From Thermoplasmata archaeon (GTDB lineage: Archaea; Thermoplasmatota; JAKEGO01), in contig JAKEGO010000020.1 in the NCBI GenBank assembly GCA_022615805.1, positions 1 through 35,677 on the forward strand: a stretch of DNA of 35,677 nucleotides, given 5' to 3'. The position numbers and the translations under genes are program-made. Positions 3,205 through 34,374 of this stretch are shown here, one piece after another (the first letter of the stretch is position 1; every line of letters starts with the position of its first letter). The notes below the pieces were generated by a model. That model worked only from the letters and a program-made list of their open reading frames with translations, was not told the DNA's origin and made no database searches.

Positions 3205-3239
3205 TTCCCCCTTCTCGTCTCGGCGCTGTAATCGGCGGG

Positions 3240-3249
3240 TAAATATAAG
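3240..3249. promoter_or_regulatory. TATA-box-like element (TAAATATAAG) in the divergent intergenic region between the RAM-repeat gene and sucC
   Basis: It lies in an AT-rich island within otherwise GC-rich DNA. It is ~36-46 nt upstream of the minus-strand start at 3204/3198 and ~130 nt upstream of sucC. Confidence 0.35.
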
Positions 3250-3377
3250 AATCTTATCATGCTTCTGAGGGCTCTAGCCGATGTCGTTTATCGATATCGC
3301 AACGCCCGGCCCGTGGGGGATGGCGACAACGTTATGTAGGCCGCCGGCATTTTGCTGGAATAGCGTGGGGGAACGTC

Positions 3378-7043: not shown

Positions 7044-7084
7044 GATCTCGCCTCTGACCTCGTGATGACCTCGATGGCGGGGGC

Positions 7085-7094
7085 GATATTTACG
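7085..7094 (-). promoter_or_regulatory. TATA-like element (minus strand CGTAAATATC) upstream of the gcvH-like gene
   Basis: AT-rich motif 42-51 nt upstream of the ATG at 7043, between the glycosyltransferase stop (7141) and the gcvH start. Confidence 0.3.
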
Positions 7095-7140
7095 TTTTTC
7101 CCCTCCTCTGGCCGCCCCGGATGCCCGGCGGGGTGCGGCC

Positions 7141-10081: not shown

Positions 10082-10102
10082 ACTGATTGGGATACAATGA
10101 GA

Positions 10103-10112
10103 AGTATATAGC
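10103..10112 (-). promoter_or_regulatory. TATA box (minus strand GCTATATACT) for the larA-osmC unit, implying a leaderless or very short-leader mRNA
   Basis: It is centred ~26 nt upstream of the larA ATG at 10081, in the 102-nt gap after the flxA-like stop. No Shine-Dalgarno sequence lies in between. Confidence 0.4.
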
Positions 10113-10183
10113 GATGTCAGACGTGCCGCTGTGACCGTCCGGATCGCGCGGCCGTTCCCCGTGACACCGGATCTGAAGCGACC

Positions 10184-11230
10184 CTAGAACTCGTTCACCA
10201 TCCTCTTGACTTCCTCGTAGGTGAAGACCGGCCCGTGCTTGCAGACGTATATGTCCCCGATGTTGCAGCGGCCGCACTTGCCGATGCCGCACTTCATCCG
10301 GTTCTCGAGGGTGGTGTAGATCTGCGACGGCGTCCAGCCGAGCTTCGCAAGCGCCTGGGTGATGAACTTGATCGCGATCGGCGGGCCGCAGGTGACGACG
10401 ATGGCGTTCTCCGGCGACGGCTTGACCACCTCGACGAGCTGCGGCACGAAGCAGGTGAAGCGACGTTTCCCCTCAGGCACGACCGTTTCGCCGGGAGCCT
10501 TCATGTTGATGGCCGGCCATCCCGGCTGCGCGTCGCCCTCGATCGGCCCCTTCGGGCCGAAGGCCCAGTCTATGCAGAGCCAGAGGTCCACGTCGTCGCG
10601 AGCCTCGATGGCGGCGAACTCCTCCTTGTACGCCAGGTCGGCCGGGGTGCGCGCACCGTAGATGAGTGTGACGTTCCCGTAGTCCTTCCGGTGGTCGGGG
10701 TGCAGGACCCACTGGTAGACGCTCCTCACGGGCGAGACGCCGATGCCAGCGCCGATGAAGACCATGTCCTTCCCCTTCCACGCGTCCACTGGGAAGTCGT
10801 TGCCGTACGGTCCGCGGAGGCCGACCTTGTCCCCGACCTTGAGCTCGTGCATCTTGCCGGTCACGTTGCCGACCTTCATCGCGGAGACCTGGATGACCCC
10901 GTCGGCGTTGGGGAACGACGAAATGGCGAAGACGCTCTCCCCGGTCCCGAACTGGCTCACTATGATGAACTGCCCGGGCCTGTGGAGGAAGCGGGCGTGC
11001 TCGGCGGGGGCGTCGATCTCGAAGGTGAAGGTCCGGATGGGCCGCGCGCCGCCGGCCTCGAGCTCGATCTTCGTCACGGTCGCGGTGACCGGTAGATAGA
11101 CGTTGTGCTCCTGCGCGGCGTGAACCTTGGCCGAAGCGCCATCGGGCCCGCCGCGCCCTCCGACGGGCCTCGGGGCCTCCGCGGGGCCGACGCCTTCCGC
11201 CTTGCCTCGCTTCCTGGTACCCTTGGACAT
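10184..11230 (-). CDS. FAD/NAD(P)H-binding oxidoreductase with a C-terminal [2Fe-2S] site (FlxA-like; sulfhydrogenase gamma / AsrB / PyrK family)
   Basis: 348 aa with RPGQFIIV, MVFIGAGIGVSPVRS and the C-terminal CGIGKCGRCNIGDIYVCKHGPVF. The ATG directly abuts the upstream stop. Confidence 0.85.
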   Translation of the reverse strand: MSKGTRKRGKAEGVGPAEAPRPVGGRGGPDGASAKVHAAQEHNVYLPVTATVTKIELEAGGARPIRTFTFEIDAPAEHARFLHRPGQFIIVSQFGTGESVFAISSFPNADGVIQVSAMKVGNVTGKMHELKVGDKVGLRGPYGNDFPVDAWKGKDMVFIGAGIGVSPVRSVYQWVLHPDHRKDYGNVTLIYGARTPADLAYKEEFAAIEARDDVDLWLCIDWAFGPKGPIEGDAQPGWPAINMKAPGETVVPEGKRRFTCFVPQLVEVVKPSPENAIVVTCGPPIAIKFITQALAKLGWTPSQIYTTLENRMKCGIGKCGRCNIGDIYVCKHGPVFTYEEVKRMVNEF

Positions 11231-12304
11231 TCAGGCAGCCCCCTTCGCATCCGCGCCGGCGCCCTCGCGCCTGGCCTCGGCACACGTCTTCGTCCCCTCG
11301 GCCACCTCGATGATGTCGATGTTCACCGGGCAGTTGGCGATGCAGCGGCCGCAGCCGACGCACCCGACGATCCCGAGGTTCCTGTCGATGTAGAGGAACT
11401 TGTGGTAGAGCCGGTTCCGCTGGCGGTGCTTCTTCCCCGGCCTGGGGTTGTGCCCCGACGCGTGCAGCGAGTAGTACGCCGCCTGACAGGTGTCCCACGT
11501 GCGTTCGCGCCTGCCCTCGCCCTTCCGGACGACGTCGTTGATGTCGAAGCAGTGGCACGTGGGGCACAGCAGGGTGCATATCCCGCACCCGAGACAGGGC
11601 TCGGAGACCGTGTCCCAGTACGGGTCGTCGAAAAGGCACTCGAGGGCGGCGGCGACGCCCTCGCGGTCGAAGCGCCTCGTGATGCGCTCGTCCGCGGCGG
11701 CCTTGACCTCCTTCGCGGCGCCGGCGTCCTTCTTGCCGGCCTTGCCGAAGGCGTCCCCGCCCGCCGACAGGATGGCCTCACCCTTGGGGGTCAACGCCTC
11801 GACGTAGTAACTGTCACCGAGGTCGGTCCAGAGCATGTCGGCCCCCTCCGTGCCGGACGGGCTCCCGTCCATCGACGGGCAGAAGCATTGCTCGTTGGGC
11901 ATAGGCCCGGTGCAGGTGAACGATATGACCGTCGCCCTCTCGCGCTTGTCGACGTAGTACGGGTCGATGTAATCCCACGTGAACAGCCTGTCGAGGAACG
12001 TCGCGGCGCGGACGTCGCATGGCCTGCCGCCGAGGAGGAGGATCTTCCTGGCAGCCCTCTCCGGTTCCCGCGCCCCCACGAACCGGTGCCCGGTCCCGTC
12101 CTTCTCGAACTCCATCATGGTCTCCGTCTGCGGGAAGAATATCGATTTGGGCGGCACCCTCGAGTTCGTGAAGCCGGGCGGCGGCGGGCCGGTCACCCTG
12201 CGGTAGAGGAAGACGCCGTCCTCCTCCACAGGACCGTAGACGTCGTAGTCGGTCAGGCGCGAGACGAGCTGGGCGATCCTGTCCTTCCGTATCGTGTTTG
12301 CCAT
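11231..12304 (-). CDS. Iron-sulfur protein, FlxB-like (sulfhydrogenase beta / AsrA family)
   Basis: 357 aa with two ferredoxin motifs, CLGCGICTLLCPTCHC and CVGCGRCIANCPV. GGAGG lies upstream of the ATG. Confidence 0.8.
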   Translation of the reverse strand: MANTIRKDRIAQLVSRLTDYDVYGPVEEDGVFLYRRVTGPPPPGFTNSRVPPKSIFFPQTETMMEFEKDGTGHRFVGAREPERAARKILLLGGRPCDVRAATFLDRLFTWDYIDPYYVDKRERATVISFTCTGPMPNEQCFCPSMDGSPSGTEGADMLWTDLGDSYYVEALTPKGEAILSAGGDAFGKAGKKDAGAAKEVKAAADERITRRFDREGVAAALECLFDDPYWDTVSEPCLGCGICTLLCPTCHCFDINDVVRKGEGRRERTWDTCQAAYYSLHASGHNPRPGKKHRQRNRLYHKFLYIDRNLGIVGCVGCGRCIANCPVNIDIIEVAEGTKTCAEARREGAGADAKGAA

Positions 12305-12316
12305 GTCATCGCCTCC

Positions 12317-13246
12317 CTACCAGATGAACTCCTCCGGGTCGTCGACGTCGCACGAGCCGAACGTCGGGGCGTCCTCGGCGCTCCTTCCGGCCTCGACGCC
12401 GTATCGCTCCTTCGCCTTCTTCTCGAGGTACCGGTTCAACTTCCGTATCGGGATGTCCATCGGGCACACACGCTCGCACTCGCCGCAATCGATGCATCGG
12501 CCCGCGAGGTGCATCGCCCTGACCGCATGGTACCAGAGGTTCTCGGGCAGCTGCACGGTCCGCTCGTTCCACCGGTACGGCTTCTCGCGGTCGAACACGC
12601 ACTCGGCGCAGTAGCAGAGCGGGCAGACCTCTCGACAGCCGTAGCAGCGGACGCAGCGCGAGAGCTGGCGCTCCCAGTACGCCCACCTCTCCTCCGGCGA
12701 CATCGCCTCGATCTCGGCGACGTCGGAGTAATCGTCCTCCACCGTCTCGGGGACCTCGTCGCCGACGACCTCGTCGGCCATGAGCGGGTTGTGGAGCCTG
12801 CACACGGTGCACTTGTCGGCGATCGTGTCGGCCGTCACCGCATGTGGCCCGACCTCGGTACCCACGAGCTTCTTCGGGTCGCAGACGCCTTCGCACGTGA
12901 GGCCGATGACCCGGACGCGCGCCGGGTCGACGATGTGCTCCTTCACGAGCTCGACGACCGTCTTCGAGTCGCAGGGCTTCACCACGATGCCGATCGGGCG
13001 CGGGTCGGGCTTCTCGCCCTTCGCGAGCTTTCGAAGCATCTCCTCCCGGAGGAACAGCGTCAGGTTGTTCACGCACGTCGGGTTCCAGATGAGGCGGTCG
13101 GCGTCCCCCGCCCTCCGGACGAAGGCCGCTCGGGCGACGTTCCCGCGGCCCGCGGCGTAACCTATCACGTAGCGCACCTCGCCGGATGCCAACCATCGGC
13201 GCGCGATGTCCCGGACCTGCGCCTCCTTGGCTGACGCGTCGGGCAT
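12317..13246 (-). CDS. Iron-sulfur protein, FlxC-like
   Basis: ~309 aa with CVRCYGCREVCPLCYC and CIDCGECERVCPM. The N-terminal part (IGIVVKPCDSKTVVEL) is paralogous to FlxB (LLLGGRPCDVRAATFL). The ATG at 13246 overlaps the mvhD stop by 1 nt. A GTG at 13249 is an alternative start. GGAGGTGAG lies upstream. Confidence 0.75.
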   Translation of the reverse strand: MPDASAKEAQVRDIARRWLASGEVRYVIGYAAGRGNVARAAFVRRAGDADRLIWNPTCVNNLTLFLREEMLRKLAKGEKPDPRPIGIVVKPCDSKTVVELVKEHIVDPARVRVIGLTCEGVCDPKKLVGTEVGPHAVTADTIADKCTVCRLHNPLMADEVVGDEVPETVEDDYSDVAEIEAMSPEERWAYWERQLSRCVRCYGCREVCPLCYCAECVFDREKPYRWNERTVQLPENLWYHAVRAMHLAGRCIDCGECERVCPMDIPIRKLNRYLEKKAKERYGVEAGRSAEDAPTFGSCDVDDPEEFIW

Positions 13247-13677
13247 CACGCCTCACCTCCGGTGAACTTCGTCTGCGGGCCCAGGGCCTTCACCTGCTCC
13301 GTGAACCTTGTCACGACCTCGGCGAACTTGTGGCCCTCGGACGCGGAGACCCACGACACCTGGAACCGCCCCGGGTCGATGCCCATGTAGTCCATCAGGT
13401 CGTGCAGCAGGGTCAGTTTCCTCCTGGCGTGGTAGTTCCCCTTGATATAGTGGCAGTCCCCGGGGTGGCAGCCGGAGACGAGCACGCCGTCGGCGCCCTC
13501 CTGGAAGGCCTTGAGTATGAACTGCGGGTTCACGCGCCCGGAGCACATCACCTTGATGACCCGGATGTTGTGCGGGTACTGGAGCCTCGACGTCCCGGCG
13601 AGGTCGGCGCCGGTGTAGCTGCACCAGTTGCAGAGGAAGCCTATGATCTTCGGTTCCCAGCTGTCGTTCTCGGCCAT
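13246..13677 (-). CDS. mvhD: MvhD/FlxD-type [2Fe-2S] electron-transfer subunit (F420-non-reducing hydrogenase delta-like)
   Basis: 143 aa with [77 protein letters not shown] lies upstream. Confidence 0.9.
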
Positions 13678-13745
13678 GTCAGATCACCTCGGGGGACGCG
13701 TGCGGCAGCGCGGGAGGGTGCCGGCCACGATCGGGTCCCTTCATG

Positions 13746-16700
13746 TCATACCACCTCGTGCAGCGCGCCCTTTATCATGGAGAGTATCTGGTTGTCGTTG
13801 AAGCCCCTCTGCTGGATGGCGCCCGACCGGCATGTCGCCGAGCAGAGGCCGCACCCCTTGCAAAGGGCGTTGTTGACGACCGCCTTACCGTCCTGGAGGT
13901 CGATGGCCACGTAGGGGCACGCGGCGACGCACAGCCCGCAGCCGACGCACGTCTCCTTGTCGACGCTCGCGGTGATGCCCTCCAGGACGAGTCGCCCCTT
14001 CATGATGGGTATGGCGGCCCTGGAGGCGGCGCCCTCGGCCTGGGCGATGGTGTCTGCGAGGTTCTTCGGGTAGTGCGCGGAGCCGCAGAAGTACACGCCG
14101 TCGGTGGCGAAGTCGAGCGGCCTTATCTTCGCGTGCGCCTCGATGAGGAAACGCCCGGGCCCGGAGGGTATCTTGAACATCTCCATGAGCCTATCCACCG
14201 AAACGGAGCCCTCTGTCTGGGCGGTGAGGACGACGAGGTCGGCGGGGATCTCGAGGTCGTCACCGTAGATCTCGTCGTGGACGCGCACCATCACATTCCC
14301 GTCGCCGTCCACCGAGACCTCAGGAGCCCTGTCGAGACCGTACCTGACGATCTTCACCCGCTTGTTCTCGATGACGTCGGTGAAGTACTCCTCCTCGTCC
14401 TTCCCGAACATGCGGATGTCGCGGTAGAGGATGTGGACGTCCGCGCCGGGATTCCTCTCCTTCAGGAGGCGGGCGTTCTTTATCGAGACGCCGCAGCCCA
14501 CGCGGCAGCACCATGGCCTCTCCGGCTCCATGGCGCCGGCGCAGTTGATCATCACCACGCTCCTCACCGGCGGCAGGTCCCCGGCCTTCAGGCGCTCCTC
14601 CAGCTCGGTCTGGGTCATCACCCTGTCGCTGGAGCCGTAGCCGTACCTGCCGGTGAGGTCGATCTCGTCGAACCCGGAGGCGATGACGGCCGTCCCGAAC
14701 GGGATGGTGCGCTCGCCCAGGGGCGTGCTGATCCGCGCCTCGAAGTTGCCGATGAAGCCGTCGACCTCATCGAGGGTGCTGCTGGTCAGCACCTCGATGT
14801 ACTCGTTGTTCCACACCCGGTCGGCCAGGGGGCCGATGACTTGGTCCGCCTCCAGATCGAGGGGGAAGAGAGTGTGCAACCGGCGTAGGATCCCGCCGAG
14901 CTCCGGTTCCTTCTCGACGACATACGACCGGACGTGCATTTCCGCCAGGGCGAGGGCCGTGCGCATGCCGGCCAGTCCGCCGCCGACGATCAGCACCGCG
15001 GGCGTGACCGAGACCTCCTCCTGCGTCAGAGGCTCGAGGAGGGCGGACTTGTGCACGGCCATGCGGACCAGGTCCCTGGCCTTGGCGGTCGCCGTGCTCC
15101 TGTTCCCCGAGTGCACCCATGAGCAGTGCTGCCGAATGTTCGCGAACTCGAAGAGGTACTTGTTGAGGCCTGCCTCGACCAAGGTGTCCTGGAAGAGGCC
15201 GCCGTGGGTGACGGGCGAGCACGCCGCTACGATGACGCGGTTGAGCCCCTCCTCCCGGACCTTGTCGCGGATGCTCTTTATCGTGTCCTCGGAGCAGGCG
15301 AACATCACGTCCGTCGCGAAGTCGACGTAGGGGAGGTCCCGCGCGTACGCTGCGACCGCCTCGGTGTCGAGGAAGCCGTGGATGTTCTTGCCGCAGTGGC
15401 ACACGAAGACGCCCACGCGCGGCGTCTCTCCGGTGACCTGACGCTCCACGGGCAGGGGAGCGGGCTCGGCCTTCTCCCTGTCGACTATGGCCGCCATCGC
15501 CTTCGCGGCGGCGCCGCTCGCCATCGCCACGCTGTCGGGGATGTCCTTGGGGCCCTGGTCGCAGCCGGCGAGGAAAACGCCCGGCCGGGAGGACTGGATG
15601 GGGTCCTCCATTATCGAGCCGGTCTCGAAGAACCCGCTCTCGTCGACGCCGATGCCGAGGACGCCTGCGAGGCGCGCGTTCTCCTTCGACGGGATTATAG
15701 CTGTGCTGAGGACGAGGAGGTCGACCGTCCTGTCCTTCACCTCTCGGGTGTGCGTGTCCATGTACCGTATCGAGATGCTCCCGTCGTCGTTCTCGAACAC
15801 CGAGCTCGGGCGCGCGCGGATGTACTCGACGCCGGCGTCCTTCGCCTTGTCGTAGTACTGCTGGAAGTCCTTGCCGTAGGCCCGGAGGTCCATGTAGAAG
15901 ATGCTGACGTCGATATCGGGGTCCGCCTCCTTGGCTATCGCCGCCTCCTTGGTGGCGTACATGCAGCAGACCCTGGAGCAGTAAGGGAACCCGAGCTGCT
16001 TGCTCCTGGAACCGACGCACTGGATCCACGCCACGCTCTTTGGCCGCTGGCCGTCGGACGGGCGCTTCACCTTACCCTCGGTCGGGCCGAAGGACGACAG
16101 GAGGCGCTCGAATTGCATAGCGGTGATGACGTTCGGGTACTTCCCGTAGCCGTACTCCTTCCGCATCTCGAGGGGCTCGAACAGCTCGTAGCCGGTGGCG
16201 ACGATGACGCTGCCGACGTGGACCTCGATGTCCTCGGACTTCTCGAGGAACGAGATCGCGCCCGGCTCGCACACGCGCTCGCACGAGCCGCAGCCGACGC
16301 AGTTCTCGTAGTCGATGGTGTAGACGATCGGCACGGCCTGCGGGAACTCGATGTAGATCGCCTTCCGCCTCGAAAGGCCCTCCTCGAAGCCGCTCACGAC
16401 CTCGACGGGGCAGACGGGGACGCAGTCGTCGCACCCGGTGCATTTCTCCGGATCGACGTACTTGCTCTTCCGGAACACGTGCGCGGTGAAGTTGCCGGTC
16501 TCCCCCTCGAGGGACTGTATCTCGGTGTACGTCATCAGCCTGATGTTCGGGTGCCTGGATACCTCCACCATCTTCGGGGCGGAGGTGCATATCGAGCAGT
16601 CGTTCGTCGGGAAGGTCTTGTCGAGCTTGACCATGTTCCCGCCGATGGTCGAGGTCTTGTCGAGCAGGACGACCCTGTAGCCCTTGTCGGCGATGTCGAG

Positions 16701-16970
16701 CGCGGCCTGCATGCCGGAGATGCCGCCGCCGACTATGAGGACGTCGGCGTCGATGCGCCTTCCCGCCCTGCGAAGCTTGTACTCTGCGACGACTTCGGGC
16801 TCCGCCTCCCCGTGCATCGCGTCTTCGAGCATCGTCAGCTCGGGGACCTGTATCAGGTAATCGTCTTCCAGGGGCACATCGTCGTAGTACTGCGGTATGA
16901 CGTCGGTCCCTTCCATCACGTCCACGGGGGTCTCGCACTCCCCGGCCTTCGTCTCACCGGGAAAGGGCAT
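13746..16970 (-). CDS. hdrA: Giant two-module HdrA-like flavoprotein (heterodisulfide reductase subunit A family), paralog 1
   Basis: 1074 aa. Module 1 has VLIVGGGISGMQAALD, DKTFPTNDCSIC, an inserted ferredoxin (CTGCDDCVPVCP / CVGCGSCERVCEP) and CVGSRS..YCSRVCC. Module 2 has VGVFVCHCGKNI (N-domain cluster), VLIVGGGLAGMRTALALAE, NCAGAMEPERPWCCRVGC and a C-terminal ferredoxin (CVGCGLCVAACP / CKGCGLCSATCRSGAIQQRGF). Confidence 0.9.
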   Translation of the reverse strand: MPFPGETKAGECETPVDVMEGTDVIPQYYDDVPLEDDYLIQVPELTMLEDAMHGEAEPEVVAEYKLRRAGRRIDADVLIVGGGISGMQAALDIADKGYRVVLLDKTSTIGGNMVKLDKTFPTNDCSICTSAPKMVEVSRHPNIRLMTYTEIQSLEGETGNFTAHVFRKSKYVDPEKCTGCDDCVPVCPVEVVSGFEEGLSRRKAIYIEFPQAVPIVYTIDYENCVGCGSCERVCEPGAISFLEKSEDIEVHVGSVIVATGYELFEPLEMRKEYGYGKYPNVITAMQFERLLSSFGPTEGKVKRPSDGQRPKSVAWIQCVGSRSKQLGFPYCSRVCCMYATKEAAIAKEADPDIDVSIFYMDLRAYGKDFQQYYDKAKDAGVEYIRARPSSVFENDDGSISIRYMDTHTREVKDRTVDLLVLSTAIIPSKENARLAGVLGIGVDESGFFETGSIMEDPIQSSRPGVFLAGCDQGPKDIPDSVAMASGAAAKAMAAIVDREKAEPAPLPVERQVTGETPRVGVFVCHCGKNIHGFLDTEAVAAYARDLPYVDFATDVMFACSEDTIKSIRDKVREEGLNRVIVAACSPVTHGGLFQDTLVEAGLNKYLFEFANIRQHCSWVHSGNRSTATAKARDLVRMAVHKSALLEPLTQEEVSVTPAVLIVGGGLAGMRTALALAEMHVRSYVVEKEPELGGILRRLHTLFPLDLEADQVIGPLADRVWNNEYIEVLTSSTLDEVDGFIGNFEARISTPLGERTIPFGTAVIASGFDEIDLTGRYGYGSSDRVMTQTELEERLKAGDLPPVRSVVMINCAGAMEPERPWCCRVGCGVSIKNARLLKERNPGADVHILYRDIRMFGKDEEEYFTDVIENKRVKIVRYGLDRAPEVSVDGDGNVMVRVHDEIYGDDLEIPADLVVLTAQTEGSVSVDRLMEMFKIPSGPGRFLIEAHAKIRPLDFATDGVYFCGSAHYPKNLADTIAQAEGAASRAAIPIMKGRLVLEGITASVDKETCVGCGLCVAACPYVAIDLQDGKAVVNNALCKGCGLCSATCRSGAIQQRGFNDNQILSMIKGALHEVV

Positions 16971-17493
16971 CCTTACCAGCCTCGTATCCCTTCTTGAACG
17001 CGTTCACGTTGAGCTCGGCGAACCTCTTGGGGACGCTGTCGAGCACCGCCTTCCTCATGGCATCCTCGTCGAACAGGTCGTATATGCCGGTCATCGCCCC
17101 CACCATGGCGATGTTGGTCACTATCTTGTTCCCGAGGTCCTCTGCGATCTTCTGGACCCGCACCTCGAAGACCGGACGCCCTAGGTCGTGTTTCGGCACC
17201 AGGTCCGGATCGACGATGACGACCGTGTCGGGCCTCACGTCCCCCTTGTAGGTGTCGAACGCCTCCTGGGCGATCGCCACGAACAGGTCGACGCCGGTCG
17301 GGCGGGGGTAGCCGATCGGTTCGTCCGAGATTATGACCTCCGAGCGGGCGGCGCCGCCCCTGGCCTCCGGGCCGTACGATTGGCTCTGCACGGCGTTGTA
17401 CGGGCCGAACACGCATGCCGCCTTCCCGACGATGAACCCCGCGAGGATGACCCCCTGGCCACCGAACCCGGCGATCCTGATCTCGCGCTTCAT
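16954..17493 (-). CDS. 2-oxoacid:ferredoxin oxidoreductase gamma subunit (kor/por type)
   Basis: It begins MKREIRIAGFGGQGVILAG. The ATG at 17493 overlaps the beta-subunit stop (ATGA). The 3' end overlaps the hdrA start by 17 nt. Confidence 0.9.
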   Translation of the reverse strand: MKREIRIAGFGGQGVILAGFIVGKAACVFGPYNAVQSQSYGPEARGGAARSEVIISDEPIGYPRPTGVDLFVAIAQEAFDTYKGDVRPDTVVIVDPDLVPKHDLGRPVFEVRVQKIAEDLGNKIVTNIAMVGAMTGIYDLFDEDAMRKAVLDSVPKRFAELNVNAFKKGYEAGKDALSR

Positions 17494-18377
17494 TCCGCAC
17501 CACCCCCGCCCCACTTCGCGTCATCGTTGGCCATGAGCTTCTTCACCATCCGGTCGTATGCCTCGAAGAAGCCGGGCTTCTCGGCCTTCTGGAAGATACC
17601 GATGAGGAACTTCTCCTTCACCGCCGCCTTCTCCTCCTCGGTCCCGTACCTCATCGTCTTCTCGTAGTCCTCGATGAGGATGGTGTTCTGCTCGTACCAG
17701 GCCCAAAGCTGGTCGATCTCCCCCAGCTTGTTGCGACGCCCGTAGGCGGTCGGGCAGGGGGACATGAGCTCTATGAGCGCGAACCCTGGGGTCTGTATCC
17801 CCTCCTTGATCGACTTGATGGGCTGGTAGGGGTAGAATATCGGCCACCGTGCGACGTATGCGGCGCCCAGGGCCGTCGCGAGCTCGCTGATGTTGAACGG
17901 CTGCTCGATGTTCCCGTAAGGGGCGGTGGTCGCGATGCTCCCCTTCGGCGCCGTCGGCGCGAGCTGCCCGCCCGTCATCCCGTAGATGAAGTTGTTGAGC
18001 AGGATGACGGTCATGTCTATGTTGCGCCGCGCGGCGTGGATGAAGTGGTTGCCGCCGATGCCCGTGCAGTCGCCGTCCCCCGTGAAGACGATCACGTGCA
18101 TGTCGGGGTTCGCGGCCTTGATCCCGGTGGCGAAGGCCAGCGCCCTCCCGTGCGTCGTGTGGAGGCCGTCGGCGTTGATGTAACCCGGGATCCTCGACGA
18201 GCACCCGATGCCGGAGGCGAGCGCCACGTCGTCCATGTTTATCCCGAGCTCCTCTATGGCCCAGAAGGTGTAGTCGATGGCGTTCCCGTGGCCGCAGCCG
18301 TTGCAGAATATCGTCGGGAGCATCCCGTCCCGAAGGTATTTCCTCCGGATCTCGTTGGCGTCGATCATCTCGCTCAT
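17490..18377 (-). CDS. 2-oxoacid:ferredoxin oxidoreductase beta subunit (TPP-binding)
   Basis: It begins MSEMIDANEIRRKYLRDG. It has CNGCGHG and the TPP motif VIVFTGDGDCTGIGGNHFIHAARRNIDMTVILLNNFIYGMTGGQ. An ATGA overlap joins it to the alpha-subunit stop. Confidence 0.9.
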   Translation of the reverse strand: MSEMIDANEIRRKYLRDGMLPTIFCNGCGHGNAIDYTFWAIEELGINMDDVALASGIGCSSRIPGYINADGLHTTHGRALAFATGIKAANPDMHVIVFTGDGDCTGIGGNHFIHAARRNIDMTVILLNNFIYGMTGGQLAPTAPKGSIATTAPYGNIEQPFNISELATALGAAYVARWPIFYPYQPIKSIKEGIQTPGFALIELMSPCPTAYGRRNKLGEIDQLWAWYEQNTILIEDYEKTMRYGTEEEKAAVKEKFLIGIFQKAEKPGFFEAYDRMVKKLMANDDAKWGGGGAE

Positions 18378-19558
18378 GTCCTCACCCCCAGGTACTCCGC
18401 CAGCTCGTGCGGCAGGTGCATCTCGCCCCCGATCTTTGGGGCCATTACGACCTCGCAGGCCTGGTCGGTGTACTCCCGGATCGGATGGTAGATCTGCCCC
18501 AGGTTCATCTCGGGGACGATTATCCGCTCCACCTTCTTGGACACTGCCATTATCTCGTCGCGCGGGAACGGCCACACCGTTTTAAGGCGGAGCATGCCTG
18601 CCTTTATCCCCGCCTTGCGCGCATCCATGACGGCGCTCCTCGCGGGCCTCGCGGACGCGCCGTACGTGACGAAGGCGACCTCGGCGTCGTCCATCATCAC
18701 CTCCTCGATGTTGACGAACCGCTTCCTGTCGTCGGTTATCTTCTCGATTATCCTCATGACGAGCCTCTCGTGGTCAGGCTGCTTGTCGGTCCTCGGGAAG
18801 CCCTTCTCGTTGTGCGTCAGGCCCGTGACGTAGGTGTGATACCCCGTGCCGAAGGCGGCGAAGTCCGGGACCTTGCTGCCGTCGATCTGCGAGGGGGCGA
18901 ACGGGAGGAACTCGCCAGGCGGCAACTTCGGCGTCCGTCGCTCGACGAGCTCGATCTCGTCCTCGTCGGGTATCACCAGCTTCTCGCGGAGGTGGCCGAT
19001 CTCGCCGTCGGTCATCACGCAGACCGGGTGGCGGTACCTCTCCGAGAGGTTGATCGCCTCGATGGTCATGTCGAGGCACTCCTGGACCGTGCTCGGGGCC
19101 AGAGCGATGGCCTCCATGTCGCCATGGGAGCCCCAGCGGACCTGCATCATGTCCCCCTGTGCGCCGAGCGTCGGCTGACCGGTTGACGGGCCCGTCCTCT
19201 GAACGTTGGCGATGACGCACGGCGTCTCCGTCATGATCGCGTATCCGTAGTTCTCCATCATCAGCGAGAACCCGGGCCCCGAGGTGGCGGTCATGGCCTT
19301 GACGCCGCCCCACGCCGCGCCGATCACGGCGGCGATGCTGCCGATCTCGTCCTCCATCTGGATGAATGTGCCGCCGACGCGGGGGAGCAGCCGGGCCATC
19401 CCCTCCGCTACCTCCGACGCTGGCGTTATCGGGTATCCCCCGAAGAAGGAAACGCCGGCCACGAGCCCGCCGTAGGCCACGGCCATGTCGCCCTGGATGA
19501 ACTGCACCTTGTCTCCCAGAACCTTCCTGATGCGCACGGGGTCGCGTTGGTATTTCAT
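18374..19558 (-). CDS. 2-oxoacid:ferredoxin oxidoreductase alpha subunit
   Basis: It begins MKYQRDPVRIRKVLGDKVQFIQGD. It has FFGGYPITPASEV, MTATSGPGFSLMMEN and VQRTGPSTGQPT. An ATGA overlap joins it to the delta-subunit stop. Confidence 0.9.
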   Translation of the reverse strand: MKYQRDPVRIRKVLGDKVQFIQGDMAVAYGGLVAGVSFFGGYPITPASEVAEGMARLLPRVGGTFIQMEDEIGSIAAVIGAAWGGVKAMTATSGPGFSLMMENYGYAIMTETPCVIANVQRTGPSTGQPTLGAQGDMMQVRWGSHGDMEAIALAPSTVQECLDMTIEAINLSERYRHPVCVMTDGEIGHLREKLVIPDEDEIELVERRTPKLPPGEFLPFAPSQIDGSKVPDFAAFGTGYHTYVTGLTHNEKGFPRTDKQPDHERLVMRIIEKITDDRKRFVNIEEVMMDDAEVAFVTYGASARPARSAVMDARKAGIKAGMLRLKTVWPFPRDEIMAVSKKVERIIVPEMNLGQIYHPIREYTDQACEVVMAPKIGGEMHLPHELAEYLGVRT

Positions 19559-19812
19559 CGCGCCACACCTCCTAGGATGAGCTTCTGCTTCTGGACCCGC
19601 TCCTCGCCCGCCTCCTGGGTCACCGTGATGGCGAAGTCGGGACATATCAGCTCGCAGAGGCGGCAGAAGTTGCACTCGTTCTCCTCCTTGAGCCTTGGCG
19701 GGTAGACCCCTTTCTTGTTAAGGTCCTTCGACTTCTCGAGCGAGCTGGTCGGGCAGCGATTGATACAGAGCTCGCAGCCCTTGCACCAGTCCTCGATGAT
19801 CGTTATGGTCAT
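19555..19812 (-). CDS. 2-oxoacid:ferredoxin oxidoreductase delta subunit (2x[4Fe-4S] ferredoxin)
   Basis: 85 aa beginning MTITIIEDWCKGCELCINRCP, with a second motif CNFCRLCELICP. GAGGTG lies upstream. Only the last 85 codons of track ORF 19555..20916 are real. Confidence 0.85.
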   Translation of the reverse strand: MTITIIEDWCKGCELCINRCPTSSLEKSKDLNKKGVYPPRLKEENECNFCRLCELICPDFAITVTQEAGEERVQKQKLILGGVAR

Positions 19813-19823
19813 CCTTCGCCACC

Positions 19824-21470
19824 TCACAGTATGTCCAGGGCCCTCGCGAGGGCTTGATGGCCCCGGTACTCGGGTAGTATCATCGGGGCCGTCCCCTTCG
19901 GGGCGATCCCGGCCTCGTCGAGCATCCTGTTGTACTCGTCTATGTGCTTCAGGCTGAGCCTGCCGACCTTGCGCGTCCTCACGTACTCGGCGGTCCGGAT
20001 GCCCGCCCGTCTGCCGAAGACGTTGAAGTCGAGCAGCGAGTTCCCCATGAGCCTGTTCTTCCCGTGGACCCCGCCCGTCACCTCCCCCGCGCCGAAGAGC
20101 CCGGGTATCCGGGTCTCGGTCCGATCGTTCGTCTCCACGCCGCCGTTCTGGTAGTGGAGGGTTGGGTAGACCAGTATCGGGTGCTTCGTCATGTCGATGC
20201 CGAAGCGCTTGAACTTCCTGACCTCGCCTGCAAGCTTCCTCTCGATCGTCCCCTTTCCGTGTATCACGTCGATCATGGGCGAGTCCAGCCATACGCCGGG
20301 CATGCCCGTCGGGGTGACCAGGCCGCGGTCCTCCTCGCACTCGCGGATGAAGGACGCGGATTCGACGTCCCTTGGCTCGAGCGGGAACACGAAGGGGTCG
20401 CCGAACCTGTTGAGCGGCTTGGCCCCGAGGCCCCTCACCTTCTCGGTCGTGAGGATGCCGACCACGGCCTCCGGGTAGGCGTCCCCGGTCGGGTGGATCT
20501 GGATCGTGTCGAGGTCGAGCAGGTTCGCGCCGACGTGGTACGCCATGACGAGGCCGTCGCCGGTTGCGCCGTAGTGGTTGGTCGTCGGGTAGTTGCTCAG
20601 GTGGAGTCGCCCCGAGCCGCCCGTCGCGAGGATGGTCGCCTTCGCCCTGATGACATGGTGCTCCTTGGTCTCCAGGTTGAACGCGACCCCGCCCGCCACC
20701 GCCCCCTTGTCGTCGAGGAGCAGCTCCACGACCGGGCAGAATTCGAGGACCGGGATCTCCAGGTTGCGCGCGTGGTCCCTTATGTTCCTCATCATCTCCA
20801 TGCCCGTGTAGTCCTTCGCACTGTGCATCCTGTTCCTCGACGTGCCGCCGCCCGAGAGCTCCTGGAACTCGCCGTCGTCCATGCGGTCGTACATGACACC
20901 GAGGTCGAGGTGCCACCTCAGTATCTTCGGGGCGTCCATTGCGAGGGCACGGGCCATCTCCGGCTTGTTGGTGAAGTGGCCGCCGCCGTAGATGTCCAGG
21001 TAGTGGATCAGCGGACTGTCCACGCCCCTGTCGGCGGCCTGGATGCCCCCCTGGGCCATCATCGAGTTGGCGTCGCCGTGGCGGAGCTTCGTCGCGATGA
21101 GTATCCTGTCCACCGGGACGCCCGATTCGTGGGCGAAGATCGCGGCGACCGTCCCGGCGCCGCCGCCGCCGATGATGAGGATGTCGACATCGTGGTCGAT
21201 GTGACCGAGGTCGACGGCCCGAGGGTCGAGGACGGGGCGCGCCTCGAGGAGGTCGACGATGCCATTGTACATGAGAAGGCCCGCATCCGTGCCGACGCGC
21301 ACCTCGCGGCGGGTGCCCTCCATGTAGTCGGGGTGGAACCTCCTCAACATGTCCTCGCGCTGCTCCATGGACATGGGTTCGATGGCCCGCTCGATGTTCT
21401 CGGCCCGCTTCTCCTCCACGAGCCGGATCGAATCCATCATGTATTCAGGGTAACCGCTCTCGAGCTTCAT
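19824..21470 (-). CDS. SdhA/FrdA/NadB-family FAD flavoprotein (fumarate-reductase-like) with a ~110-aa N-terminal extension
   Basis: 548 aa with DILIIGGGGAGTVAA, SMMAQGGIQAA, IQIHPTG, TTEKVRGLGA, TLHYQNGGVETN and GLFGAGEVTGGVHGKNRLMGNSLLDFNVFGRRAG. Confidence 0.85.
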   Translation of the reverse strand: MKLESGYPEYMMDSIRLVEEKRAENIERAIEPMSMEQREDMLRRFHPDYMEGTRREVRVGTDAGLLMYNGIVDLLEARPVLDPRAVDLGHIDHDVDILIIGGGGAGTVAAIFAHESGVPVDRILIATKLRHGDANSMMAQGGIQAADRGVDSPLIHYLDIYGGGHFTNKPEMARALAMDAPKILRWHLDLGVMYDRMDDGEFQELSGGGTSRNRMHSAKDYTGMEMMRNIRDHARNLEIPVLEFCPVVELLLDDKGAVAGGVAFNLETKEHHVIRAKATILATGGSGRLHLSNYPTTNHYGATGDGLVMAYHVGANLLDLDTIQIHPTGDAYPEAVVGILTTEKVRGLGAKPLNRFGDPFVFPLEPRDVESASFIRECEEDRGLVTPTGMPGVWLDSPMIDVIHGKGTIERKLAGEVRKFKRFGIDMTKHPILVYPTLHYQNGGVETNDRTETRIPGLFGAGEVTGGVHGKNRLMGNSLLDFNVFGRRAGIRTAEYVRTRKVGRLSLKHIDEYNRMLDEAGIAPKGTAPMILPEYRGHQALARALDIL

Positions 21471-22229
21471 TCAATGGCCCCCCTTGACATCGTCGCCGCT
21501 GGCCTCGATCTTCAACGCCTTGTAACGCCGCCTCAACTCCGCCTCGTCCATGTTGACGAGCTCGTCCATGTCGGCGTCGTACTTGCCTGACTCGATCTCG
21601 CGGAGGCGCGCCTCCAGGTCCCTGGACGGCGGGTCCAGGTACTTGCCGTTGAGCCTGCGCGCGAGCTGCGCGACGTGGTAGTGCTTGATGTCCGCCGGGC
21701 ACCGCATCGCGCACATGCCGCACTGTATGCAGTCGAAGGACAGCTCGGCGGCGCGCCTGATGTTCCCTCTGAGGGCGTTCTGTATGTACATCATCACCTG
21801 GATGTCCTGGGGGCATGACTTGGTGCACGTGTTGCAGGAGACGCAGCGGGCGATCTCGGGGTATATCGACAGTATCGTCGATTCCTCGGGCCTCACCTCG
21901 TCGATGTCGTACATCGCTTTCGAGGCCGGCACGAACGGTATCTGCACGAGGTACATGCCCTCCTCGACCAGCTGCTGGCATGCGAGGGCGAAGTGCAGCT
22001 TCTGCTCGTCCTCCTTCCTGTAGATCGTCGAGCAGGCGCCGCAGAAGCCGGCCCTGCAGCCGCAGCTCCTGATGAACTGGTACCCGGCGTACTCGATGGC
22101 CTTCATTATCGTGAACCCGACGGGGACGTCGTACTTCTTCCCCATGATGAAGATCTCGTAGGTGGGCGCCCCCTCCGGCGCCTCCGTCCCCTTTCCCGAA
22201 CGCGCTGCCGATGATCCGCTCTCGTACAT
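21471..22229 (-). CDS. SdhB/FrdB-like iron-sulfur subunit ([2Fe-2S] N-domain plus two CxxCxxCxxxCP motifs)
   Basis: 252 aa with RSCGCRAGFCGACS...LAC (SdhB-type Cx4Cx2C...C), CVSCNTCTKSCP and CIQCGMCAMRCP. The stop directly abuts the flavoprotein ATG. Confidence 0.8.
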   Translation of the reverse strand: MYESGSSAARSGKGTEAPEGAPTYEIFIMGKKYDVPVGFTIMKAIEYAGYQFIRSCGCRAGFCGACSTIYRKEDEQKLHFALACQQLVEEGMYLVQIPFVPASKAMYDIDEVRPEESTILSIYPEIARCVSCNTCTKSCPQDIQVMMYIQNALRGNIRRAAELSFDCIQCGMCAMRCPADIKHYHVAQLARRLNGKYLDPPSRDLEARLREIESGKYDADMDELVNMDEAELRRRYKALKIEASGDDVKGGH

Positions 22230-22247
22230 CCTACCACCTCTCGCCGA

Positions 22248-23126
22248 TCACGATATGACCCCCTTCTCCCGCAGGAGGGGGATCGGGTCGACCGCGTGGG
22301 TCTCGAAGCCGCAGCTCCCGGTCCCGAGGCCGAATGCGACGGCCATGAGCTGCGTGTAGTACATGACGGGCACCTGGGAATAACCGTCGATGAGCTCCTC
22401 CGCCTCCTTGCCCCGGACGTCGAGGTTGAACCGGCAGAGAGGGCAGGAGAGCATGATGGCGTCCACTCCGCGCCCGAGGGCGTAGCTGGCGATCTTGCCG
22501 GCGCGCCTGGCGGTGGACTCCCTCTGCTCGATGGTCCGGTACGTGCCGCAGCACTCGACCTTGTACGGGTTGTCGACGACCTCGCCGCCGAGCGCGACGA
22601 TGAGGTCTGCAAGGATGCGCGGCTCCTCGGCATCGTCGATCGCGACCTCCCTGGGCCTCAGGAGCATGCACCCGTAGTAGGGCATGATCCGCATCCCCTT
22701 GAGCGGCCTCTTGACCTTCTTCCTCATGACGTCGAAACCGACCTCGTCCCTCAGGAACTCGAGGAGGTGCTGGACCTTAACCGTTCCTTTGTAATCGTTC
22801 TCACGGTCCATGAAGGCGTTGAGGGTGTCGAGGTCCGCCTTTCGCGCCTTGACCCTCGTGTCGGTCTGTTTCAGGGTGTTGGAGCACATGTCGCAGATGA
22901 CGACGACGCGCTGGTGCCCCTGGTCCTCGACATGGACGAGGTTCCTCAGGGGTGCGACGTGGTGCATGAGATCGTCGGTGGTGAGGGAGGATGCGACGCC
23001 GCAGCAGTTCCACTCGTCCATCTCCCTGAGCTCGTGCCCGAGGGCGCGGAGGACCGCGACCGCGGAGGACTCGAGGTTCTTCGCGGACGTCTTCATCGTG
23101 CAGCCGGGGTAGTACAGCAGTTCCAT
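22248..23126 (-). CDS. hdrB: HdrB-like heterodisulfide reductase catalytic subunit (two CCG domains)
   Basis: 292 aa with YYPGC...WNCCGVAS...ICDMCSNTL and PYYGC...VECCGTYR...LSCPLCRFNL. Confidence 0.9.
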   Translation of the reverse strand: MELLYYPGCTMKTSAKNLESSAVAVLRALGHELREMDEWNCCGVASSLTTDDLMHHVAPLRNLVHVEDQGHQRVVVICDMCSNTLKQTDTRVKARKADLDTLNAFMDRENDYKGTVKVQHLLEFLRDEVGFDVMRKKVKRPLKGMRIMPYYGCMLLRPREVAIDDAEEPRILADLIVALGGEVVDNPYKVECCGTYRTIEQRESTARRAGKIASYALGRGVDAIMLSCPLCRFNLDVRGKEAEELIDGYSQVPVMYYTQLMAVAFGLGTGSCGFETHAVDPIPLLREKGVIS

Positions 23127-23130
23127 GGTA

Positions 23131-23562
23131 TCATCCGACGTTCTTCCTGAAGAGGCAGACGAAAGCCAGCTGCGGTATGCTGCGCTTCTCCTCCTCGGTG
23201 AGCCCGGTCATGTCCGTCTCGTCGATGTTGCTCCGGAGGACGATCTGCCGCAGGGCCTCCATGATCTTCGTGATGTTGAGGTCGCGGGGGCACCTCTCCG
23301 CGCACGTGAAGCAGGATGCGCACAACCATATCGTCTTCGAGCGGAGCACTTCCTTCCGGTCCATGATCACGTGTCGGAGGACCTCGTCGGGGGTCAGGTC
23401 CATCTCGTCGATGAAGGGGCACCCGGCGGCGCACGTGCCGCACTGGTAGCAACCGAACACGTTCTCGTCGCAGAGGTCCTGCAGCTCATCGATGAGAGTG
23501 CCCGATAACCTCGGGACCTTCTCCTGTGCGGCCTCCTCGCTCCTCCTGGATTCGGTCGCCAT
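23131..23562 (-). CDS. hdrC: HdrC-like 2x[4Fe-4S] subunit
   Basis: It starts at the ATG at 23562 (MATESRRSEE...), preceded by GGAGGG. It has CYQCGTCAAGCP and CASCFTCAERCP. Confidence 0.85.
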   Translation of the reverse strand: MATESRRSEEAAQEKVPRLSGTLIDELQDLCDENVFGCYQCGTCAAGCPFIDEMDLTPDEVLRHVIMDRKEVLRSKTIWLCASCFTCAERCPRDLNITKIMEALRQIVLRSNIDETDMTGLTEEEKRSIPQLAFVCLFRKNVG

Positions 23563-23863
23563 GATAGCCCTCCGTAATCGAATGGTGCAACAGCCCCTTC
23601 GCTGCCGTAGCAACCTGGATACCGTTTTTCCGTTATAAGGATTTGACGGTCGCGAACTGGTCCGATTTTGACATTTAATTGATATTTTTCAAAAAAAGGT
23701 ATCACATTGGCCAGTACCTGAGACCCGTTTTACCATTTTGCGAGTTATTACGGGTCGAATTCTCCCTCTCGGACGGAGACCCCCCCGCCAGTCGGCGGCT
23801 GAAGCGCCGCCCGCGGGACACGTAGCGGTGCATTGATGCGCCCGGGTACGGCGTACGCCGCGT
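23563..23863 (-). promoter_or_regulatory. Inter-operon region holding a probable oligo-T terminator for the upstream unit and TATA-like promoter elements for the hdrC-...-flxA unit
   Basis: This is the only gap over 100 nt between 35677 and 10184. The minus strand reads ...ACCTTTTTTTGAAAAATATCAATTAAATGTCAAAATCGG...GTCAAATCCTTATAACGGAAAAACGG... It has a T7 run (plus strand 23691-23697), AT-rich boxes (plus strand ~23672-23690 and 23629-23638) and two TTTGAC copies (plus strand 23642-23647 and 23667-23672). A GGCGGC/GCCGCC hairpin lies at 23794-23811. Confidence 0.4.
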
Positions 23864-34373: not shown

Positions 34374-34374
34374 G

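Follow-up and report, generated by a model that had tools for sequence, protein, structure and literature searches.

The closest described counterpart of the locus analysed here is a gene cluster reported by Rubin-Blum, Dubilier and Kleiner in 2019 (PMC6315080), frdB-frdA-hdrC-hdrB-korD-korA-korB-korC-hdrA-flxD-flxC-flxB-flxA, which was found in tubeworm symbionts (Ca. Endoriftia and the Escarpia symbiont), Thioflavicoccus mobilis and an aquifer-derived metagenome-assembled genome (MAG) of gammaproteobacterial affiliation, and for which direct electron bifurcation to a 2-oxoglutarate:ferredoxin oxidoreductase (KOR) and a fumarate reductase was proposed. Mitchell et al. (2024; PMC11636981) observed co-expression of this cluster, including its intergenic regions, but still listed the function of the complex as unknown, and a survey of autotrophic bacteria published in 2026, which recovered this arrangement from Endoriftia alone, again calls the complex 'suggested'. 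Here we describe a cluster of 13 genes from a Thermoplasmata archaeon, hdrC-hdrB-sdhB-sdhA-ofDABG-hdrA-mvhD-flxC-flxB-flxA, where of denotes the genes of a 2-oxoacid:ferredoxin oxidoreductase (OFOR). It lies within contig JAKEGO010000020.1 (assembly GCA_022615805.1), whose 35,677 nucleotides were analysed as a whole and are referred to as the window. We see an even chance that the 13 genes encode a single soluble flavin-based bifurcating assembly of a reductive tricarboxylic acid (TCA) branch. The initial annotation of the window knew of no described system with this composition, a statement superseded by the reports above; no description of archaeal clusters of this kind was found in the literature searched.

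The tubeworm-symbiont cluster contains the same 13 gene families on one strand, with the kor genes between hdrCB and hdrA and flxDCBA at the end. In the symbionts, however, frdBA precedes hdrCB, whereas hdrCB precedes the frdBA-like pair in the window; the host of the former is gammaproteobacterial, and that of the latter is an archaeon with a 1074-aa fused tandem HdrA. The symbiont cluster belongs to a reductive TCA gene set, whereas the window contains aconitase and sucCD genes but no aclAB, idh, pntAB or rnf genes; therefore, a full reductive TCA cycle is not implied.

Other known systems share parts of this design. The domain set of FlxABCD-HdrABC from Desulfovibrio vulgaris (Ramos et al. 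2015, as cited in PMC6315080) matches that of the window (FlxA with FAD, NAD(P) and 2Fe-2S domains, FlxB, FlxC, an MvhD-like FlxD and HdrA/B/C), but its proposed high-potential acceptor is the DsrC disulfide, with a link to alcohol dehydrogenase, whereas the window has an embedded Frd-like AB pair, a four-subunit OFOR and a tandem HdrA. The reductive partial TCA pathway of methanogens (PMC9012536), which employs MvhAGD-HdrABC, TfrAB and KorABDG, follows the same redox logic, with H2 bifurcated to fumarate and 2-oxoglutarate synthase, and the Thermoprofundales variant described below even has mvhGA. However, coenzyme M and coenzyme B thiols (CoM-SH/CoB-SH) and ferredoxin diffuse among three separate enzymes in methanogens, in contrast to the Flx/NAD(P)H donor and the proposed single assembly of the window, and the methanogen TfrB is one polypeptide whose counterparts here are the SdhB-like protein and HdrB (plus HdrC). 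In the Hdr-Fmd/Fwd super-assemblies (PDB 7bkb; Hdr-Vhu-Fwd, PMC13518236), the low-potential branch of HdrA is wired to a CO2-reducing enzyme without free ferredoxin; the partner is formylmethanofuran dehydrogenase, reached via a polyferredoxin, whereas the proposed partner in the window is a thiamine pyrophosphate (TPP)-dependent OFOR and no polyferredoxin is encoded. By description, the cluster also resembles the soluble, NADH-linked and irreversible reductive-TCA fumarate reductase FrdABCDE of Hydrogenobacter thermophilus (Miura et al. 2008, via PMC13147460), which has an SdhA-like A subunit and five subunits in all; the account given there reports neither an OFOR nor bifurcation. Finally, in type E succinate:quinone reductases and methylmenaquinol:fumarate reductases (SdhABE), SdhE is an HdrB-like partner of SdhAB that works without thiol chemistry. 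The SdhE model NF042965 matches the HdrB of the window at 147 bits, far under its cut-off of 500, and the SdhABE enzymes are membrane-associated, quinone-linked and devoid of HdrA, Flx or OFOR.

The 13 coding sequences (CDSs) and the upstream AT-rich region are as follows, in the direction of transcription.

23607-23767, minus strand: AT-rich region upstream of hdrC, with a T7 run and a TATA-like TTATAA
23131-23562, minus strand: HdrC-like protein, 143 aa (Fer4_17/Fer4_8; TIGR03290 HdrC, 76.5 bits, under cut-off)
22248-23126, minus strand: HdrB-like protein, 292 aa (PF02754 twice)
21471-22229, minus strand: SdhB/FrdB-like Fe-S subunit, 252 aa (Fer2_4 and Fer4 dicluster matches)
19824-21470, minus strand: Frd/Tfr-like flavoprotein encoded by 'sdhA', 548 aa (FAD_binding_2 only; PF00890, 214 bits)
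19555-19812, minus strand: OFOR delta subunit (KorD-like), 85 aa, 2x[4Fe-4S] (Fer4; best NCBIfam model OGOR_delta, 62 bits)
18374-19558, minus strand: OFOR alpha subunit (KorA-like), 394 aa (POR_N and PFOR_II)
17490-18377, minus strand: OFOR beta subunit (KorB-like), 295 aa (TPP_enzyme_C; TPP-binding GDG...NN motif)
16954-17493, minus strand: OFOR gamma subunit, 179 aa (PF01558; PRK08537, 208 bits)
13746-16970, minus strand: fused tandem HdrA, 1074 aa (aligns to methanogen HdrA 8RVU/5ODC in three pieces, E ~1e-214)
13246-13677, minus strand: MvhD/FlxD-like [2Fe-2S] adaptor, 143 aa (PF02662, 195 bits; VhuD, 133 bits)
12317-13249, minus strand: FlxC-like Fe-S protein, 309-310 aa (Fer4_8/Fer4_17, weak FrhB_FdhB_C)
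11231-12304, minus strand: FlxB-like protein, 357 aa (Fer4_22; resembles sulfhydrogenase beta/AsrA)
10184-11230, minus strand: FlxA-like NAD(P)H:FAD oxidoreductase with [2Fe-2S], 348 aa (FAD_binding_6, NAD_binding_1, DHODB_Fe-S_bind)

The Pfam and NCBIfam domains agree with the gene identities first assigned, with refinements for the A subunit (Frd/Tfr-like), the OFOR (KorDABG-type) and HdrA (tandem), and no subunit has lost its cofactor-binding or catalytic motifs. As reported initially, the genes are tightly packed into 10184-23562 of the minus strand with a largest gap of 68 nt; the junctions read from the sequence match in their coordinates, and the intergenic distances range from -17 to +68 nt. 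The sdhB/sdhA (21471/21470) and flxB/flxA (11231/11230) junctions have no spacer, and ATGA overlaps of 4 nt join ofD to ofA (19555-19558), ofA to ofB (18374-18377) and ofB to ofG (17490-17493). The 3' end of ofG shares 17 nt with hdrA (16954-16970), and mvhD and flxC overlap by 1 nt (TGATG), or by 4 nt if a GTG start is used. The other spacers are short (hdrC/hdrB, 4 nt; hdrB/sdhB, 18 nt; sdhA/ofD, 11 nt; flxC/flxB, 12 nt), except for the 68 nt between hdrA and mvhD (13678-13745), which are GC-rich and contain no TATA-like element. The chosen ATGs are preceded by GGAGG-type ribosome-binding sites. Longer upstream starts for hdrC (TTG 23613), ofD, ofA, ofB and ofG were dropped because their extra portions are R/G/P-rich off-frame translations and ATGs with ribosome-binding sites exist, and the longest open reading frame (ORF) in the flxC region (12306-13256) is off-frame, the true gene being 12317-13246/9. 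The third-position GC content of the 12 cluster ORFs listed is 0.82-0.94 in a genome of 66% GC (ofD is too short for this listing), indicating that the CDSs are real genes.

A scan of the entire 35.7-kb window for AT-rich spots, defined as 40-nt stretches of 40% GC or less, yielded three, two of which bracket the cluster: 23607-23767 upstream of hdrC and 10076-10125 after flxA. Thus, both AT-rich flanks of the initial annotation were recovered; the third spot lies at 3224-3282. The T7 run upstream of hdrC (23691-23697, minus strand) lies 3' of the preceding gene, hdrA2, and is likely its archaeal terminator; a TATA-like TTATAA (23633-23638) is located 71-76 nt before the hdrC ATG, and a TATATA (10105-10110) 24-29 nt before the ATG of the LarA-like gene that follows flxA. 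Internal terminators, named initially as evidence that would split the cluster, found no support: no oligo-T run of 6 or more was found within it, and terminator-like hits did not exceed the shuffle expectation (5 versus 6.1 +/- 3.0) in a bacterial promoter/terminator scan, which was set aside because its counts were at or below that expectation and the host is an archaeon. The window contains no tRNA or Rfam matches. These observations confirm the compact organization of the cluster on one strand that was first reported.

The 'sdhA' product, which shows 100% identity to a database protein from a Thermoplasmata archaeon MAG, lacks a Succ_DH_flav_C (PF02910) match and carries a conserved stretch of ~93 additional residues at its N-terminus. 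Among NCBIfam models, TfrA (NF004900) fits it best, at 305.6 bits against a cut-off of 718, and is matched over model positions 7-421 of 546. In an alignment with solved SdhA/FrdA chains, it has the HPTG, RG, HYxxGG and NRLxGNS motifs; H326, R346, H439 and R473, taken here as the two His/Arg pairs contacting the fumarate carboxylates, do not vary among 240 homologues. The histidine for covalent FAD attachment is replaced by asparagine (N135) in all 240. The AlphaFold2 model (pLDDT 81.7) has E. coli FrdA (1KF6_A) as its best Foldseek match (E 1.7e-26, TM 0.64). The 'SdhAB-like pair' of the initial annotation therefore holds at the level of the Frd/Sdh superfamily, given the fumarate-site residues and the fold, but not as canonical SdhAB, considering the absent C-terminal domain, the asparagine and the TfrA score; we assign the flavoprotein by sequence to a family of ~548-aa Frd/Tfr-like proteins distinct from canonical SdhA. 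A canonical succinate dehydrogenase was rejected on account of the invariant asparagine. NadB models also match (234 bits), but an identity as L-aspartate oxidase was rejected in view of these lower scores and the Fe-S partner. In E. coli FrdA and SdhA, covalent flavinylation is needed for succinate oxidation and not for fumarate reduction. The FAD of the window flavoprotein is predicted to be bound non-covalently, fitting fumarate reduction better than succinate oxidation.

The SdhB-like partner has a CRAGFCGAC...C 2Fe-2S motif and two CxxCxxCxxxCP motifs but no CCG domain, and weakly matches the SdhB chain 6lum_B. HdrC also has two CxxCxxCxxxCP motifs for [4Fe-4S] clusters (its ATG at 23562 follows a GGAGGG ribosome-binding site), and HdrB has two complete CCG motifs (C..CCG..CxxC). 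All HdrB scores are under the respective cut-offs (HdrB TIGR03288, 153 bits; methylmenaquinol:fumarate reductase SdhE NF042965, 147 bits; C-terminal part of TfrB, 43 bits). TfrB is a natural fusion of SdhB-like and HdrB-like modules. Here, its functions are divided among the SdhB-like protein, HdrC and HdrB, each of which is matched by the TfrB model at only 30-43 bits, and no single TfrB-type polypeptide is present. The matches of the TfrB and SdhE models to cluster proteins identify SdhB-like and HdrB-like modules as known partners. Since HdrB is the single CCG protein of the cluster, a CCG domain is missing from the SdhB-like subunit, and both the TfrB fusion and the SdhE partnership are known, electrons may pass directly from HdrB to the SdhB-like subunit. 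A heterodisulfide shuttle between HdrB and the Tfr-like enzyme ranks lower because of the single CCG protein.

The four OFOR subunits are encoded by separate adjacent genes, as in four-subunit KorDABG. Models for 2-oxoglutarate-type enzymes outrank those for Por, Vor and Ior for delta, alpha (among specific models) and beta: alpha matches PRK08659 at 549 bits (cut-off 411) and OorA at 349 bits versus PorA at 100 bits, and the best beta model is 2-oxoglutarate ferredoxin oxidoreductase beta at 273 bits versus PorB at 65 bits. The flavoprotein and all but one of the four OFOR subunits have NCBIfam matches only under the curated cut-offs. The OFOR is thus most likely of the 2-oxoglutarate type by its sequence matches, and the nearby sucCD genes support a 2-oxoglutarate/succinyl-CoA specificity.

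Three regions of HdrA align to methanogen HdrA: residues 73-447 to the FAD domain with the inserted ferredoxin domain, 509-693 to the N-terminal Fe-S domain and the start of a second FAD domain, and 934-1072 to the C-terminal ferredoxin domain. The first half (~70-500) carries a DCSIC motif (C125/C128) and the inserted ferredoxin domain, both of which are missing from the second half, and C128 would, by alignment offset, be the equivalent of Cys197. Each methanogen-type element is therefore present once, spread over the two halves. Fused HdrA proteins with complementary losses, which would act as their own heterodimer partner, were described by Chadwick et al. (PMC9012536), and the HdrA of the window is predicted to be such a self-complementary tandem. 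At the donor end, FlxA resembles sulfhydrogenase gamma/AsrB, and no NCBIfam model matched the FlxC-like protein. A MAG contig (L001 in our locus numbering; GCA_974434885.1) is 99.92% identical to the window over 14.9 kb, and there the flxB stop TGA, directly followed by the flxA start (window 11228-11233), is CGA (within 13450-13480), yielding a single 706-aa FlxB-FlxA protein. As the C-terminus of FlxB and the N-terminus of FlxA are low-complexity and linker-like, the flxB/flxA split may be a recent nonsense change tolerated thanks to the immediately following ATG.

To place the cluster in other genomes, we scanned genomes with the flavoprotein, which gave 59 loci, added six found by looking up exact proteins, and assigned types using Pfam and tblastn queries with the window proteins. 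The gene order of the window (Type A) was found in three further loci (L002, L028 and L040), of which L002, a Thermoplasmatota MAG with 78% identity, also conserves the upstream Hdr cluster and LarA. In Type B, present in 20 Thermoplasmatota contigs (L005, L007, L009, L010, L012, L014, L016-L021, L024, L030, L033, L036, L037, L045, L047 and L052), the order is sdhB-sdhA-ofDABG-hdrA(tandem)-hdrC-hdrB-mvhG-mvhA with sucD<-sucC ahead. Small and large subunit genes of a [NiFe]-hydrogenase after hdrB replace the Flx genes in this type, and no separate mvhD was seen within the flanks. Its sources include the Thermoprofundales reference MAGs SG8-52-3, M9B1D and M11B2D, together with Guaymas MAGs and complete MAG chromosomes. 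Type C, ofDABG-hdrA(single)-mvhD-(flxCBA)-hdrC-hdrB-sdhB-sdhA(-sucCD), occurs in Chitinivibrionales, Vulcanimicrobiota, a 7.6-Mb bacterial contig, a second Thermoplasmatales copy and Heimdallarchaeota. A further order was identified in L066 (1-11638), ofA-hdrA-mvhD::flxC(fused)-flxB-flxA-ofB-ofG-hdrC-hdrB-98 aa-sdhB-sdhA, in a host that clostripain-like peptidase neighbours suggest to be a Firmicute. There, hdrA, mvhD::flxC, flxB and flxA are inserted between the OFOR alpha and beta genes, an interleaving that, read from gene order, is hard to reconcile with two independent enzymes.

Of the loci typed, 23 are flanked by 8 kb or more on each side; OFOR genes were found in 21 of them, HdrA in 20, HdrBC in 21, Mvh in 12, Flx in 3 and sucCD, no more than 10 kb from the sdhA-like gene, in 13. 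As one archaeal order dominates the sampled loci, these counts do not represent independent events. At every one of 33 loci examined, the hdrA frame stays open through the ofG stop. Thus, across archaea and bacteria, OFOR, HdrA, HdrBC and SdhAB-like genes remain linked in four or more different gene orders; the linkage that the initial annotation expected to be conserved in other genomes, if real, is kept in all three types and in L066, and this gene-order conservation strongly supports the cluster as a functional unit. Hdr is absent from L004, and OFOR from Chloroflexota loci. A Methanofastidiosia MAG (L064) has the hdrC-hdrB-sdhB-sdhA core alone, possibly a split thiol:fumarate reductase, and the cultured Desulfofundulus sp. 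TPOSR (L065) has an OFOR and sdhB-sdhA-aconitase-hdrC-hdrB but no HdrA. The latter strain, in which genes for a TRAP dicarboxylate transporter, PrpF and Iso_dh are neighbours, is a possible experimental handle for the core enzyme. The occurrence of SdhAB-HdrBC without HdrA or without OFOR in some loci indicates that the parts can work in other combinations; judged from gene content, the architecture is modular, comprising an SdhAB-HdrBC core (split Tfr) to which HdrA-MvhD, OFOR, and either Flx or MvhAG are optional additions.

The gene content, cofactor motifs, tight coupling and conserved linkage are established, and the following scheme would connect them. FlxA, with FAD and [2Fe-2S], would oxidise NAD(P)H; FlxB/FlxC and then the MvhD-like adaptor would relay the electrons to the FAD of HdrA, the fused protein serving as an internally heterodimeric bifurcation site. 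The exergonic branch would run from HdrA through HdrC, the noncubane CCG clusters of HdrB and the SdhB-like subunit to the non-covalent FAD of the Frd-like flavoprotein and on to fumarate; HdrB would take the role of the CCG half of TfrB, and a CoM/CoB-type thiol shuttle would be unnecessary. The endergonic branch would lead from the HdrA ferredoxin domains to the delta subunit of the KorDABG-type OFOR, which would carboxylate succinyl-CoA to 2-oxoglutarate while docked directly or via a ferredoxin held close. A close link of this kind is suggested by the interleaved genes of L066, the ofG-hdrA overlap and the Hdr-Fmd/Fwd precedent. The succinyl-CoA synthetase encoded nearby would connect the fumarate-reducing and OFOR reactions. 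In Thermoprofundales, a sister lineage, the MvhAG [NiFe] hydrogenase would replace Flx, and H2 would replace NADH; such a swap is expected of an exchangeable mid-potential donor module and supports the single-assembly reading.

Bifurcation of NAD(P)H electrons at HdrA to fumarate and the OFOR, as initially envisaged, is the best-supported reading, with the linkage retained through several gene orders, two domains and two input modules, yet several points weigh against it. Physical association, direction, substrates and bifurcation itself are what we infer from sequence, which does not fix the substrate specificity of the OFOR or the nucleotide preference of FlxA. The OFOR retains its delta ferredoxin subunit, so that coupling through free ferredoxin is also compatible with the data. 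The core has no donor module nearby in L043, L058, L062 and L063, and SdhAB-HdrBC genes occur without HdrA or without OFOR in L004, L064 and L065. In Endoriftia, tfrAB departs in its differential expression from the other cluster genes (Mitchell et al. 2024; PMC11636981). Moreover, the likeness to the tubeworm-symbiont cluster is one of gene families and order: Gammaproteobacteria were absent among the 120 matches listed in each of three homologue searches (window flavoprotein, Chitinivibrionales and Deltaproteobacteria queries).

A rather unlikely alternative, although the first of two options in both Rubin-Blum et al. and Mitchell et al., is that the cluster is a co-regulated pathway operon in which FlxABCD-HdrABC supplies free ferredoxin and a soluble disulfide carrier (a DsrC-like or lipoyl protein or a small thiol) to a separate Tfr-like enzyme and a free-standing KOR. 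The retained delta subunit, the separation of the modules in some genomes (L064, L065 and L004) and the partial uncoupling of tfrAB expression in Endoriftia would all fit, as would the recurrence of GcvH-like and lipoate-ligase genes nearby and the two complete CCG motifs of HdrB, which in methanogens are the site of disulfide chemistry. However, with one CCG protein per cluster and an SdhB-like subunit that has no CCG domain, there is no second site for thiol re-oxidation, and no ferredoxin or DsrC-like gene lies within the operon. The insertion of hdrA and flx genes between OFOR alpha and beta in L066 and the universal ofG-hdrA overlap are also poorly explained by mere co-regulation.

The same machinery might instead run oxidatively: electrons from 2-oxoglutarate (low potential) and succinate (high potential) would merge at HdrA and pass to NAD+ or, in the Mvh variant, to protons, so that a fermenting, peptide-degrading archaeon could operate the oxidative TCA segment with no respiratory chain. 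In principle, bifurcating enzymes can work in either direction, the hydrogenase variant could release H2 if its pressure is very low, and Thermoprofundales have been described as peptide/amino-acid degraders with an oxidative Kor and a TCA cycle read as oxidative (PMC6461988). We nevertheless regard this direction as improbable, in contrast to the initial annotation, which held it equally possible. The asparagine in 240 of 240 homologues replaces the attachment site of the covalent flavin needed for succinate oxidation, and the closest characterised relatives, Tfr and soluble Frd, are fumarate reductases. Textbook potentials are -320 mV for NADH, +33 mV for fumarate and about -520 mV for succinyl-CoA/CO2. 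Our own calculation from these values gives about -30 kJ/mol for 2 NADH + fumarate + succinyl-CoA + CO2 and thus about +30 kJ/mol for confurcation with NAD+ under standard conditions; this uphill reverse reaction and the non-covalent FAD make the confurcating direction less likely and favour fumarate reduction. Still less probable, in our view, is a general fermentative electron sink in which the flavoprotein acts on another enoate or aspartate, and/or the OFOR on other amino-acid-derived 2-oxoacids. Such substrates would accommodate the sub-cut-off NCBIfam matches of the flavoprotein and three OFOR subunits, the NadB scores, and the unusual N-terminal extension and missing C-terminal domain of the flavoprotein family, but both fumarate-carboxylate His/Arg pairs are invariant, the SdhB-like Fe-S partner is typical of Frd/Sdh and not of NadB, the 2-oxoglutarate-type models score above their Por/Vor/Ior counterparts, and sucCD and aconitase recur as neighbours.

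Returning to the single bifurcating assembly, a bolder form, which we consider possible but doubtful, is a hard-wired supercomplex free of thiols and ferredoxin. In it, a self-heterodimeric HdrA would split electrons from NADH (H2 in Thermoprofundales) between a split-Tfr fumarate reductase and a docked 2-oxoglutarate synthase, providing the main reductive TCA route in MBG-D, Asgard and Theionarchaea, cosmopolitan archaea of sediments for which a lack of fumarate reductase has been reported. If this is true, the supercomplex would unite in one particle what methanogens carry out with Tfr + Mvh-Hdr + Kor.

Downstream of flxA, the window encodes LarA-like, OsmC, glycosyltransferase, GcvH and macro-domain proteins, followed by sucD-sucC, an AsnC-like regulator and aconitase. 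Judged from these assignments, the window holds enzymes for three consecutive reductive TCA steps (fumarate reductase, succinyl-CoA synthetase and 2-oxoglutarate synthase) in addition to aconitase. The features outside the operon are as follows.

3378-5414, plus strand: sucC-sucD (succinyl-CoA synthetase), which recurs beside the cluster in related genomes
23864-26875, minus strand: tandem hdrA2
26866-~27630, minus strand: mvhD2
27636-30827, minus strand: tandem hdrA3
~30824-31714, minus strand: hdrB2
31711-~32205, minus strand: hdrC2, inside a longer off-frame ORF
32205-33254, minus strand: LplA-like lipoate ligase
33312-34373, minus strand: GlcF/HdrD/TfrB-like Fer4 and CCG protein
34375-35676, minus strand: GlcD-like FAD oxidase, cut by the window end

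The LarA-like gene (8825-10081, minus strand) scores best with the Ni-dependent malate racemase LarAH6 (313 bits, under the cut-off of 500), ahead of lactate racemase; a homologue occupies the same position in L002 and lies nearby in L041, and the enzyme may feed D-malate into the malate/fumarate pool. The gene for a GcvH-like lipoyl carrier (6612-7151) adjoins the macro-domain gene (5965-6522), and GcvH-like genes recur near the sdhA-like cluster in L025 and L027 (beside sucD) and in L059 (directly after sdhA). Together with the upstream LplA-like gene, they recall the lipoate-binding proteins of sulfur-oxidising Hdr-like systems, and a lipoyl protein is a possible substrate of HdrB. A 453-aa protein (1843-3282), in which only a short AsnC/Lrp ligand-binding domain match was found, is encoded divergently from sucCD across the AT-rich stretch 3224-3282 and may regulate the TCA genes. 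The corresponding position in L012, between sucC and sdhB, is taken by the gene for a TrmB/MarR-like regulator. The second Hdr-rich cluster, directly upstream of the first (23864-35676, minus strand), possibly encodes a 2-hydroxyacid-linked bifurcating or confurcating system; its hdrB2-to-hdrA2 part is kept in L002.

The comparative data presented here extend the hypothesis of direct bifurcation from a few sulfur-oxidising Gammaproteobacteria to Thermoplasmatota, Heimdallarchaeota and several bacterial phyla. What appears new is the breadth of the archaeal occurrence and the variant with a hydrogenase; the fused HdrA and the interleaving of genes are further useful additions to the published idea. 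The founding Thermoprofundales paper (PMC6461988) did not find frdAB and read the TCA cycle as oxidative, yet two of its own MAGs, M9B1D (L033) and M11B2D (L019), contain Type B clusters. Because these clusters occur in MAGs reported to be without frdAB, carbon-flow models of these abundant sediment archaea may need revision. If the proposed assembly exists, it would relieve, at a single stroke, two thermodynamic and kinetic bottlenecks of the reductive TCA branch by providing a soluble electron donor for fumarate and electrons of about -500 mV for succinyl-CoA carboxylation, the second being paid for by the first, an economy that methanogens achieve with three separate enzymes and two diffusible carriers. 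It would also represent, after Hdr-Fmd/Fwd, a further case in which an HdrA core is hard-wired to a CO2-fixing enzyme.

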